64,000 bases of DNA from Leptospira sp. GTDB lineage: Bacteria; Spirochaetota; Leptospiria; Leptospirales; Leptospiraceae. Numbering within the stretch: the stretch's first letter is position 1; each line of letters opens with the position of its first letter. A program made the translations under genes and the position numbers. Positions 22,513 through 24,639 of this stretch are shown one piece after another. The notes below the pieces were generated by a model. It had not been told where the DNA came from. It made no database searches and was given only the letters and a program-made list of their open reading frames with translations. The stretch covers positions 192,001 to 256,000 of the forward strand of contig JAWXAQ010000027.1 of the NCBI GenBank assembly GCA_034439575.1, read 5' to 3'.

Positions 22513-22594
22513 GCTCGGATGGTGGAATTGGTAGACACGCTACTTTGAGGTGGTAGTGCCGCAAGGTGTGGGGGTTCGAGTCCCCCTTCGAGCA
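22513..22594 (+). tRNA. tRNA-Leu(GAG)
   Basis: cloverleaf: acceptor GCTCGGA/TTCGAGC, anticodon arm CTACT-TTGAGGT-GGTAG, long variable arm, GGGGG-TTCGAGT-CCCCC; CCA not encoded. Confidence 0.95.
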
Positions 22595-22814
22595 AACACC
22601 GGTTCAACGAAATAATTTTAAATACTAATAAAAAATGAACTCGAACAGTGGCGCGAGTTTTAAAATTGCGACCCATAGGGAGTAAATTTTAAAACAAGGA
22701 AGCCAAGGATGGCTTCCGTCGAGTGCCGCCGTGCCTCGGAGCGTTTCATCACAGGAAGTGATGAAAGCAGAGAGGTCAGAGTCCAGTATTTCTTAGCAAA
22801 CACCGGTTCAACGA
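22591..22814 (+). repeat. 20-bp exact direct repeat AGCAAACACCGGTTCAACGA (22591-22610 and 22795-22814) including the tRNA 3' end
   Basis: both copies read directly from the sequence, 204-bp period. Confidence 0.9.
22620..22791 (+). ncRNA. candidate structured non-coding RNA or miniature element with GGA-loop hairpins
   Basis: nested stems GTTTTAAAATT/AATTTTAAAAC, GGAAGCCA-AGGA-TGGCTTCC, TTTCATCAC-AGGAA-GTGATGAAA, closed by AAATACT/AGTATTT. Confidence 0.55.
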
Positions 22815-23084
22815 TAGTTCGTAAAATTTAACTTTCTTAAAAATAGAAAACTAACTTTTTCTTTCATAGTTTTGCATAAACGTGTTATATATGGATTTAT
22901 GATTTATATGTGTCTACAGCTTAAATTAGGATGTAAATCGAAAGGAAAGTTTTTATAAAACCAATCAAGAGTTTAGGTACGATCTAATGGAGAATTATGT
23001 ATGAACTAATCGTTTCGATTCGCACATATTCTCTACTATTGTTAAAGAAATATATAGAATATCATAATAGAAACTTTGATATTG

Positions 23085-23597
23085 CTAAATGGACGACCCC
23101 CCATTTCCTTGAATATTTTCTAAATTTCGCATAAGTTTGGTTAATAGATCATTGAGAGTTTTTATTTCGTTTTCATTAAAACTTGACAAACACCTATTTT
23201 CATTTTCTGTATGCACCTTTACTGCATCTTCAATCAATGAAAATCCTTTTTTCGTGAGTATTACATTGACAACTCTTCTATCTTTCTCATCTGGTTTTCG
23301 TTCGATCAGCCCCTTTTTCTCCAATCGATCCAAACGATTTGTCATTGCCCCTGAAGATAATAACATTCCTTGCCATAACTGAGTTGGATTCAATTCATAG
23401 GGAGTGCCAGAGCGTCGAAGAGAAGCTAGTACATCAAATTCTCCCAATTTCAAATCAAAGGGTTCTAGAGCCTTTTCGACAATATTTAAAGTTCGAAGTG
23501 CTACTTGGCCAATGCGCCCAAAGACTTCCATTCCTGAAAGAGAAAGATCCGGAATTTCATTCTTCCATTGCTTTAAAATTTTATCAATTGCATCCAT
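23085..23597 (-). CDS. MarR-family regulator, PecS/UrtR-like
   Basis: N-terminal helix QWKNEIPDL, EFDVLASLRRSG, SGAMTNRLDRLE, DRR wing motif. Confidence 0.88.
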   Translation of the reverse strand: MDAIDKILKQWKNEIPDLSLSGMEVFGRIGQVALRTLNIVEKALEPFDLKLGEFDVLASLRRSGTPYELNPTQLWQGMLLSSGAMTNRLDRLEKKGLIERKPDEKDRRVVNVILTKKGFSLIEDAVKVHTENENRCLSSFNENEIKTLNDLLTKLMRNLENIQGNGGSSI

Positions 23598-23602
23598 TGT
23601 TT

Positions 23603-23663
23603 TATCTTCATATTAATTATCTTGACGTCAAAACAAATAGAAAAATATCTTGATGTTAAGATT
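23603..23663. promoter_or_regulatory. tandem palindromic operator boxes between marR and the divergent hydrolase gene
   Basis: TATCTTGACGTCAAAACA (23618-23635), TATCTTGATGTTAAGATT (23646-23663) and a weaker TATCTTCATATTAATTAT (23603-23620). Confidence 0.7.
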
Positions 23664-23679
23664 CTTAATGGAGAGATAA

Positions 23680-24639
23680 ATGAATTTTAACAGAATTTTT
23701 TCAATTTTCCCGATCATTTTAGCTGGATTGAGTTCTTATGCTTGTTTTTCCAGAACTGCTATTCCGTACAAACAGGAAATTTTACCAATATCCTTGGAAA
23801 AACCGAAAAATGGGCTTCGTATGGAGGTTTTTTTAACCGGGAGAATGTTCGTTGATGCTTGGGCCGCTTATATCGGTGGCAAAGGCAAACTATTAATGGA
23901 CCAACCTGCCTATTTAATCACTCATCCTACTTATGGTCAAATCGCGTTTGAGGCCGGTCATCATTCGGAGATTGCGACTTCTCCTTCCGAACATTTGGGT
24001 TGGATTTATAAATTTGGACTAATGCCAATGGAACAAGACATTGGACAAGATTTCAGACAACAATTAATCAATAAAGGCAAAGATCCAAATCAGATAAAAG
24101 ACATCATCATATCTCATTTTCACCCCGAGCATGTGGGGGCAGTTGAAGAATTTCCAAAGGCGAGAATTGTAGCCGACAAGAAAGAAATCGAACATGGAAA
24201 GAAAGCACCTAACTATAACTATGTGCCTTCGGAATATGATCAAGTTCCAAATTGGTATCCGATTCAATTTTCCGGGTCACAACAATTCGCACCGTTTGAA
24301 GGTGTTTATGATTTGGTAGGAGACGGATCCATTTTGGTATTATCAACTCCAGGGCATACACCTGGTCACATTTCTTTGTTAGTTAATTTAGAATCAGGTC
24401 CCATTTTGTTAACAGGCGATATGGCATGGACAGAATTCAATTTACAAACTGCTTCGATTGGACTTCCTTTTATTTCTTCGGATGGAGAGAAGGCAAGGGT
24501 TTCACTTGGTAAGCTTTTAAAGTTCCAAAAAGTGAACCCAGATGTTTTAATTGTTCCTGGGCATGATTTAAATCCATTACGTCGTATAGATCGTAAAGGT
24601 GTAATTCTTCATCCTTGGACTTCTCAAATTGTGAGATAA
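23680..24639 (+). CDS. MBL-fold metallohydrolase (AHL-lactonase-like), probably exported or a lipoprotein
   Basis: SHFHPEH, TPGHTPGH, LTGD, VPGHD; hydrophobic N-terminus ending SYAC; GGAGA RBS. Confidence 0.85.
   Translation: MNFNRIFSIFPIILAGLSSYACFSRTAIPYKQEILPISLEKPKNGLRMEVFLTGRMFVDAWAAYIGGKGKLLMDQPAYLITHPTYGQIAFEAGHHSEIATSPSEHLGWIYKFGLMPMEQDIGQDFRQQLINKGKDPNQIKDIIISHFHPEHVGAVEEFPKARIVADKKEIEHGKKAPNYNYVPSEYDQVPNWYPIQFSGSQQFAPFEGVYDLVGDGSILVLSTPGHTPGHISLLVNLESGPILLTGDMAWTEFNLQTASIGLPFISSDGEKARVSLGKLLKFQKVNPDVLIVPGHDLNPLRRIDRKGVILHPWTSQIVR

Follow-up and report, generated by a model that had tools for sequence, protein, structure and literature searches.

The tRNA-Leu(GAG) locus and its structured segment

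The window analysed here, a stretch of 64,000 nucleotides from a Leptospira sp. contig (JAWXAQ010000027.1), carries on its + strand a tRNA-Leu(GAG) gene at 22513..22594 (ARAGORN; Rfam tRNA, 50.3 bits), which is followed by a solitary copy of an undescribed family of structured non-coding elements of about 155 nt. The tRNA gene does not encode CCA, and its T arm reads GGGGGTTCGAGTCCCCC. An AT-rich trailer or spacer (22595..22636) leads from the tRNA to the core of the element; the corresponding spacer is 17-64 nt long in most copies of relatives. The core opens with ACTCGAAC (22637..22646), the 5' strand of the closing helix P1, which complements GTTCGAGT of the tRNA T loop and stem (8-nt exact complement) and is here called the anti-T-arm. 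It is followed by helix P2 (22648..22729), in which GTGGCGC (22648-22654) pairs with GTGCCGC (22723-22729) through both U.G and G.U pairs, and which encloses hairpin 1 (22657-22695; arms 22657-22667 and 22685-22695, with GACCCATAGGGA as its apex, 22670-22681) and, at 22698-22717, hairpin 2 with the loop AAGGA. Helix P5 (22733..22775), recognised from both the minimum-energy fold and covariation, pairs CCTC (22734-22737) with GAGG (22772-22775) and bears hairpin 3 (22744-22766; loop AGGAA). The element ends, at 22774..22798, with the T-arm copy GGTCAGAGTCC, which forms the 3' strand of P1, and with a decayed copy of the tRNA 3' end terminating in TTAGCA. All of these features are on the + strand.

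A preliminary description of this DNA had placed a multi-hairpin RNA about 25 nt past the tRNA, in agreement with the tRNA end at 22594, and every helix that it named was found in the minimum-energy fold, including an outer stem of AAATACT (22620-22626, within the spacer) with AGTATTT (22785-22791), which was seen only in the window copy, and a stem of GAACTC (22637-22642) with GAGTCC (22779-22784). The five GGA motifs that it counted are present, at 22679, 22698, 22707, 22738 and 22754. Its statement that the segment is GC-richer than its flanks holds clearly on the downstream side only, the G+C content being 44.8% in 22620-22791, 25.2% downstream, 41.7% upstream and 37.3% in the window. Two features had not been mentioned. 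First, the GAACTC/GAGTCC stem is built from two copies of the T arm of the adjoining tRNA, one inverted and one direct; second, the element is flanked by an exact 20-nt direct repeat, AGCAAACACCGGTTCAACGA, whose first copy (22591..22610) comprises the last 4 nt of the tRNA and 16 nt of trailer, and whose second copy (22795..22814) lies 204 nt further on.

The stretch 22611-22800 folds on the + strand at -63.9 kcal/mol, compared with -39.6 +/- 3.8 kcal/mol for shuffled sequences (z -6.4; none of 200 shuffles as good). The - strand gave -65.7 kcal/mol (z -7.7), and since both strands fold strongly, folding energy alone cannot pick the strand.

Distribution of the family

BLAST searches found one copy in the window's genome. 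Within its genus, 31 of 36 genomes had matches of 70-81% identity, and none of 24 genomes of the neighbouring family had any. Copies next to tRNA genes, for which the preliminary description had suggested a search, exist in this genome and in relatives. A covariance model, R1, was built from alignment A1, in which 28 full-length copies had been aligned with MAFFT and without a covariance model. R1 detected matches in 90 of the 114 genomes of the bacterial family (by genus, 40/40, 24/24, 19/22, 2/5, 2/2, 1/1 and 1/1), and none in seven genera of that family, one of them, the best sampled, being represented by eight genomes. Within the window's genome, R1 scored the query copy at 138.9 bits, a copy behind tRNA-Gly-TCC at 40 bits and one behind tRNA-Tyr at 30 bits, and gave weak matches behind tRNA-Leu-TAA, tRNA-His and the 5S rRNA gene and within a 23S-like fragment. 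In the same genome, contig C25 starts (positions 1-270) with a fragment resembling the 3' end of 23S rRNA, which has no Rfam match at gathering score. On its opposite strand this fragment bears the GACCCATAGGGA hairpin, and a terminator-like hairpin comes after the fragment.

Searches of Rfam 15, with E values up to 10 for the window and up to 0.1 for eight relatives, returned only tRNA and no family matching the element in any genus tested. Full-text literature searches, which did not extend to Table S6 of PMC4863578 and the predicted 'CsrA-like ncRNA' of L. biflexa listed there, gave no description of the element. The published small RNA (sRNA) LIC1nc80 was ruled out as a tRNA-Gly-linked copy, the two being 225 kb apart (PMC3953431, supplement file 2). 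A phage origin was also rejected, as a composite pattern had no match in viral contigs; a 16-mer had five matches there, none of them near a tRNA, which a rough estimate puts at no more than the chance level. In addition, Flavo-1 (RF01705) was ruled out as a relative, being a separate neighbouring repeat. It occurs above the gathering threshold at L062 1247-1312 (+ strand, 44.3 bits) and L065 2252-2347 (- strand, 55.5 bits), in the window's genome, a few hundred bases behind two tRNA-linked elements and on the strand opposite to the tRNA.

Covariation and strand of the fold

RNAalifold predicted 38 pairs from A1, 25 of them with double changes. A larger alignment, A3, contained 119 matches (102 distinct) fitted to R1; among its 102 distinct copies, 92.0% of the cells pair, compared with 66.6% after shuffling (0 of 500 as high), and double changes occur in 38 of 38 pairs, figures that overstate the pairing in that A3 is model-fitted and its rows are related, but with which the model-free A1 agrees in direction. 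As a control, partners shifted by 1-3 columns in A3 paired at 32-45%. The P5 helix covaries between U-A (78 copies), G-C (10) and C-G (6), and compensatory changes were found in relatives for every helix named in the preliminary description. G.U or U.G pairs numbered 119 and A.C or C.A combinations 51, with one P2 position being U.G in 42 copies. This excess favours the tRNA-sense strand as the strand that folds, in line with the + strand preference that had earlier been drawn from the G-U pairs of the window copy. By its fold and its strand bias, the segment is a member of a conserved family of structured elements.

Several unpaired motifs are nearly invariant within the genus, namely GACCCAUAGGGA at the apex of hairpin 1, CCGUGCCUCG and GCGGAGAGG, and the apical tetranucleotide CATA of hairpin 1 is retained in 78 of 102 copies. 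Hairpin 1 itself is missing in some copies, such as that at locus L049 and the Gly copy of the window's genome. Shorter solitary copies of hairpin 1 adjoin several elements, and a perfect tandem array of 36 nt x 8.3, whose unit carries the hairpin-1 motif GCGACCCATAGGGAGC, was seen at L148 1454-1752 (genome G093). Hairpin 1 may be a separate small module. A reading of the 36-nt array as part of a type III toxin-antitoxin system was ruled out, since Pfam shows no toxin-like open reading frame (ORF) next to it. On the - strand, hairpin 2 (22698-22717) is followed by TTGTTTTAAA and scored as terminator-like; no convergent gene ends there and no sign of its use was seen.

Placement behind stable-RNA genes

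A tRNA gene was present upstream, on the same strand, in 29 of the first 29 loci. When 107 distinct copies had been placed, 71 were first units lying 0-172 nt behind a same-strand tRNA or tmRNA gene, 29 came after another unit in an array, four had a more distant tRNA (two of them through an intervening insertion sequence, IS) and three had no tRNA in the locus (one of these at a contig end). The first units were anchored behind Gly-TCC (27), Leu-TAG (15), Leu-GAG (14), Arg-TCG (4), Leu-TAA (3) and Leu-CAG (2), and once each behind Asp, Met, His, Arg-CCG, Tyr and tmRNA genes. At its end, the 5S-linked copy in the window's genome repeats the final 19 nt of the 5S rRNA, and its closing helix is made from this repeat. 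Orientation relative to the stable-RNA gene was sense in all cases.

Two other repeats occur at these sites. One, with two hairpins and CCATCC loops (GGCCATCCATGGCC ... CCCATCCTTGGG), is often found in the space that separates the element from its stable-RNA gene, as at L095 (behind tmRNA), on contig C36 of the window's genome (behind tRNA-His) and at L043 and L059; its CCATCC loops complement the GGAUG loops of the element. The other, a repeat of about 60 nt (GGTATCCCCGCCCGATTTAGGGAGGGGAACTAGACCCGCC...), resembles MITEs (miniature transposable elements with inverted repeats) or repetitive extragenic palindromes (REPs), is found behind the tRNA-Gly element in many species, e.g., at L036 ~1670-1735, and reaches up to about 30 copies per genome.

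Copies of the anchoring gene at both ends

We found that both ends of the element are made from its anchoring gene. The 3' end of the unit is a copy of the gene's 3' end, starting from C56 of the T loop; the commonest exact copy, 18-19 nt from C56 to the discriminator base, was present in 28 of 86 copies. The 5' end complements the cognate gene's T loop together with the 3' strand of its T stem, the exact complement of the anti-T-arm averaging 8.7 nt (up to 15) for the cognate gene versus 6.2 nt for non-cognate genes. Pairing between the anti-T-arm and the T-arm copy includes a 6-bp core in most copies and extends to 15 nt in some, and position 57 covaries (C-G 29, U-A 11). The 5' anti-T-arm thus pairs with the 3' T-arm copy and closes the core, an arrangement that we term the T-arm clamp. 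The terminal inverted repeat is derived from the target and is not constant across the family.

The repeating unit starts at C56 of the T loop, takes in the 3' end of the gene and its trailer and stops where the core ends, so that each unit finishes in a copy of the gene's 3' end. Arrays contain two to four near-identical units with a period of 201-212 nt. Behind tRNA-Leu-GAG at L079, L104 and L105, the copy spans the T loop to the last base of the tRNA (18-19 nt), and the sequences past the two repeat copies differ. In genome G004 and in the window, the repeat includes a further 14-16 nt of trailer, and elsewhere it spans the whole spacer, reaching about 62 nt in the Gly copy of the window's genome; behind tmRNA its length exceeds 100 nt. 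The 3' copy in the window has decayed to GGTCAGAGTCC...TTAGCA, and the ending TTAGCA is common to the G027 copy (L049), indicating that the decay is old. The 20-nt repeat past the decayed copy is exact and species-specific, which points to ongoing homogenisation of the repeats.

Exchange of the core between tRNA loci

In a FastTree tree of the 102 distinct copies, those of the window's genus cluster mostly by tRNA type, with exceptions. Three units linked to Arg-TCG fall inside the Leu-GAG clade (support 96-99), and the two units of one Arg array fall in different clades. In another genus, a single clade (support 96) unites the copies that follow Asp, His, Arg-CCG, Leu-TAG, Leu-CAG and Met. 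The tree as a whole requires 25 changes of label, compared with a minimum of 12, and the window copy is closest to Gly-type copies (74% identity) and to the copy at L049. This mixing of tRNA types shows that movement or exchange of the core has taken place between tRNA loci and that its two ends have been fitted to the local gene. Occupancy also varies between genomes: the element was present behind tRNA-Leu-GAG in 9 of 11 further loci inspected, being absent in G030 and G024, and at tRNA-Gly-TCC it was absent in G030 and G031, while G024 has a different variant.

These data bear on the possibility that the element is a structured RNA beneficial to the host, other than a CsrA-sequestering one, that comes from the 3' trailer of stable-RNA precursors and is inherited vertically. 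Such an RNA would bind a protein or act on the tRNA from which it comes, for instance by pairing of the anti-T-arm with the T arm of that tRNA, the 3' copy serving as an internal lid, and the repeats and arrays would be by-products of local duplication. A host RNA of this kind would account for the retention of the fold and of unpaired motifs in at least seven genera, for the invariable sense orientation and the excess of G.U (119) over A.C (51), and for the clustering of copies by tRNA type within a genus. In addition, at the tRNA-Leu-TAG loci, 13-15 nt of the anti-T-arm still complement the tRNA, but 9 nt are left of the decayed 3' copy in the same loci, which looks as if selection had acted on pairing with the tRNA itself. 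However, some species are without the element at a tRNA gene where others have it, genomes differ in copy number and in which tRNA genes are occupied, hairpin 1 is missing both at L049 and in the Gly copy of the window's genome, seven genera of the family do without the element, and a consensus scan found neither a promoter-like site nor a + strand terminator-like site. On balance we regard a beneficial host RNA as rather unlikely. Fragments released from tRNA 3' external transcribed spacers, such as 3'ETS-leuZ of Escherichia coli, are short pieces of spacer that base-pair with sRNAs. The element would likewise be a putative non-coding RNA freed from the trailer of a tRNA precursor, but differs in being a conserved 155-nt fold with mimicry of its target.

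Search for a mobilising enzyme

No protein-coding mobile gene and no island adjoins the window copy. Pfam searches revealed no integrase among the 11 neighbouring ORFs of the window or the 7 ORFs of L109, and no recombinase or island was found in the 20 kb beside the G028 copy (L109). The only IS seen near the elements belongs to the IS1595 family, and its ends are not those of the element; no parent IS with the same ends was found. At L046 (1673-2866, + strand) and L047, tRNA-Leu-TAG and the element are separated by a gene for an IS1595-family transposase (PF12762, 27.4 bits), and IS1595-like sequence occurs past the repeat at L104 and L106. The IS sits precisely at the 3' end of tRNA genes and has its own duplication of 9 nt of the tRNA end, CCGCCCGCA, which shows that tRNA 3' ends are insertion hot spots in these genomes. 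The IS1595 copy of the window's genome (C20:62932-64017) has no adjoining tRNA, yet the final 20 nt of tRNA-Leu-TAG recur in antisense at its end, and no R1 match was found beside the IS1595 copies of this genome. The IS1595 transposase was ruled out as mobiliser, since its insertions are independent, with other ends and their own 9-nt duplication. Nor did we see a target-site duplication of fixed length, the repeats of the element ranging from 18 to more than 100 nt.

Integrases that target tRNA genes classically leave behind a repeat of 18-19 nt of the tRNA 3' end. The segment might be an attL/attR remnant of a genomic island, similar to a cis-mobilizable element (CIME), with neither function nor mobility of its own. 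The resemblance of the repeat to an integrase footprint, the loss of synteny with other species at the window tRNA and the insertion of IS at tRNA 3' ends in the genus are all as expected of such a scar. A scar, however, would neither retain a 38-pair fold with compensatory changes over seven genera nor place the same core behind at least twelve kinds of tRNA-type gene, and no integrase was found near the window copy or in the 20 kb of L109. We therefore consider an integrase scar very improbable. Integrative elements that target tRNA genes, and CIMEs, insert at the 3' part of tRNA or tmRNA genes, create a direct repeat of 17-20 nt of the 3' end and undergo tandem accretion. The element is similar to these in its direct repeat of the 3' end (most commonly 18-19 nt, from C56), but it is only about 200 nt long, gene-less and conserved as a single-strand fold, its repeat can run far into the trailer, T54/T55 are missing and a 5S rRNA gene is also used.

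Possible origin of the element

We tentatively favour, as quite possibly correct, the explanation that the segment is a non-autonomous structured element that is anchored at T loops, is duplicating or mobile, and is read through together with the tRNA. Such an element would spread rarely, by duplication or recombination at the T loop. Both of its ends would become matched to the local gene, possibly via homogenisation of the repeats and correction between the inverted repeats, and it would be read through passively as part of the tRNA precursor. The fold of the sense strand, as RNA or as single-stranded DNA, would be what selection or a copying mechanism preserves. Co-transcription with the tRNA is plausible. 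No sequencing run contained half of the words sampled from the stretch (best share 0.11), and in contigs from four runs the window's element had no cover of its own. RNA-library contigs from two organisms contain a relative of the core (83% identity over 22639-22743), with a depth that is DNA-like, so that the signal may be DNA.

MITEs, REPs, palindromic elements derived from IS200/IS605 and attC sites are small, non-coding, hairpin-rich and non-autonomous, favour one strand and conserve structure more than sequence. The element resembles them in being small, non-coding and hairpin-rich, with terminal inverted repeats, but differs in that it is found behind stable-RNA genes only, its inverted repeat copies the local T arm, its copies are few and it has no parent IS. 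IS of the IS1634/IS1549 type are kilobase-sized, contain transposase genes and are flanked by long direct repeats of variable length; the element has such repeats but no transposase gene. According to PMC11602168, Leptospirales are very rich in MITEs. The alternative offered in the preliminary description, a REP/MITE-like element targeting tRNA genes, came close, in view of the sense placement behind stable-RNA genes, the copies of the 3' end, the arrays and the variable presence of the element.

Several observations weigh against a mobile or duplicating element. Copy number is low, with one strong and about six weak matches in the window's genome and 2-14 R1 matches per genome in ten fully searched genomes. 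No transposase, integrase or reverse transcriptase was found linked to the element, and the one candidate, the IS1595 transposase, had to be discarded. No clean empty site with conserved flanks on both sides was found among the species compared, because the flanks behind tRNA genes are not conserved between them. Within the genus, most copies occupy the same tRNA genes, a pattern that prolonged vertical inheritance of a useful RNA would explain no less well than mobility. The invariant unpaired motifs suggest a protein or tertiary contact, i.e., a function, and the compensatory changes could partly reflect correction between inverted repeats at the DNA level rather than selection. At the junction one or two Ts of the T loop (T54/T55) are missing; they would be retained in simple conservative site-specific recombination. 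Finally, the length of the repeat is variable (18 nt, 18+14, about 62 and more than 100 nt), and this fits the expansion and collapse of arrays better than target duplication by a transposase.

A further idea, which we regard as a long shot, is that the element homes to the T loops of stable RNAs by nucleic-acid guidance, with the 5' anti-T-arm (8-15 nt) acting as the guide that selects the target. The folded sense strand would then present a double-stranded mimic of the T arm to a recombinase or repair enzyme of the host, and a change of guide alone would suffice for retargeting. If so, it would be an insertion element without genes, programmable and of a so far undescribed type.

If the favoured explanation of a T-loop-anchored element is true, a whole bacterial family bears an unrecognised class of structured elements on its tRNA, tmRNA and 5S genes. 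For RNA biology, they offer a new, well-supported fold with invariant motifs; for the biology of mobile DNA, a gene-less element whose ends copy the target in inverted and direct form and which no standard scheme of transposition or integration fits. In practical terms, the elements account for the breaks in contigs and the variable tandem arrays that occur past tRNA genes. Screens of intergenic regions that use GGA density to look for sRNAs should mask them, and the copy number of the arrays may possibly serve as a strain marker.

Relation to CsrA

CsrB/CsrC and RsmX/Y/Z are multi-hairpin RNAs of about 110-370 nt that carry GGA in their loops, and some rsmX genes occur in tandem. The preliminary description had proposed that the segment is an sRNA of this type, in which GGA in two loops and in unpaired stretches would sequester CsrA, with an output tied to transcription of the tRNA. 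The element is similar in having multiple hairpins and loop GGA; the window loops CAAGGAUG and CAGGAAG, and CAGGAUG and AGGAU, the most frequent GGA-containing loops of the family, resemble the published consensus of the CsrA site, RUACARGGAUGU, as quoted in PMC8668096. In the family, the GGA loops seen in the window proved to be only partly conserved, GGA being the majority state in hairpin 2 (70 of 102 copies) and hairpin 3 (63 of 96). The first G is C or U in about one third of the loops, often among close relatives, so that non-GGA loops read CGA or UGA. Of 92 evaluable copies, 47 have GGA in both loops, 34 in one and 11 in neither. GGA occurs 5.45 times per element, compared with 4.27 in mononucleotide shuffles, a 1.3-fold enrichment, and both CGA and GAG are more frequent trinucleotides than GGA in the element.

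The window's genome does possess csrA (C7:1770-1925), with fliW, the gene of the known protein antagonist, adjacent at 1971-2333. However, csrA is present in 111 of the 114 genomes of the family, including genera without the element, and no phyletic link between the element and CsrA was found among these 114 genomes. No Rfam family of the Csr/Rsm type matched the window or the eight relatives, and the consensus scan detected nothing promoter-like in the interval from the tRNA to the element, nor any terminator-like site on the + strand. According to PMC8668096, homologues of csrB and csrC are absent from Leptospira, and the antagonist is probably FliW. An algorithm based on GGA density predicted a 'CsrA-like ncRNA' on chromosome I of L. 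biflexa, as stated in PMC4863578 and cited in PMC8668096; this RNA may or may not be a copy of the element.

Taken together, tandem arrays would multiply binding sites, as would suit a sponge, but sequestration of CsrA leaves the T-arm clamp and the repeats unexplained and does not agree with the incomplete conservation of the GGA loops or with csrA in genera without the element; the element's tie to tRNA genes also sets it apart from CsrB/Rsm RNAs. We thus consider sequestration improbable, what speaks for it being the motifs. Of the two properties of homologues on which the preliminary description had let the idea depend, conservation of the GGA loops is partial, and compensatory changes are present.

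Neighbouring region of the window

Downstream of the element, at 22815-23700, similarity to the same locus of other species stops at the tRNA or the element. The stretch of 25% G+C and the MarR gene that lie behind the element have matches elsewhere or nowhere in relatives. The neighbouring genes in the window encode a class II aminoacyl-tRNA synthetase, an ORF product of unknown type, MarR, two beta-lactamase-fold proteins, a CDP-alcohol transferase and FliG.

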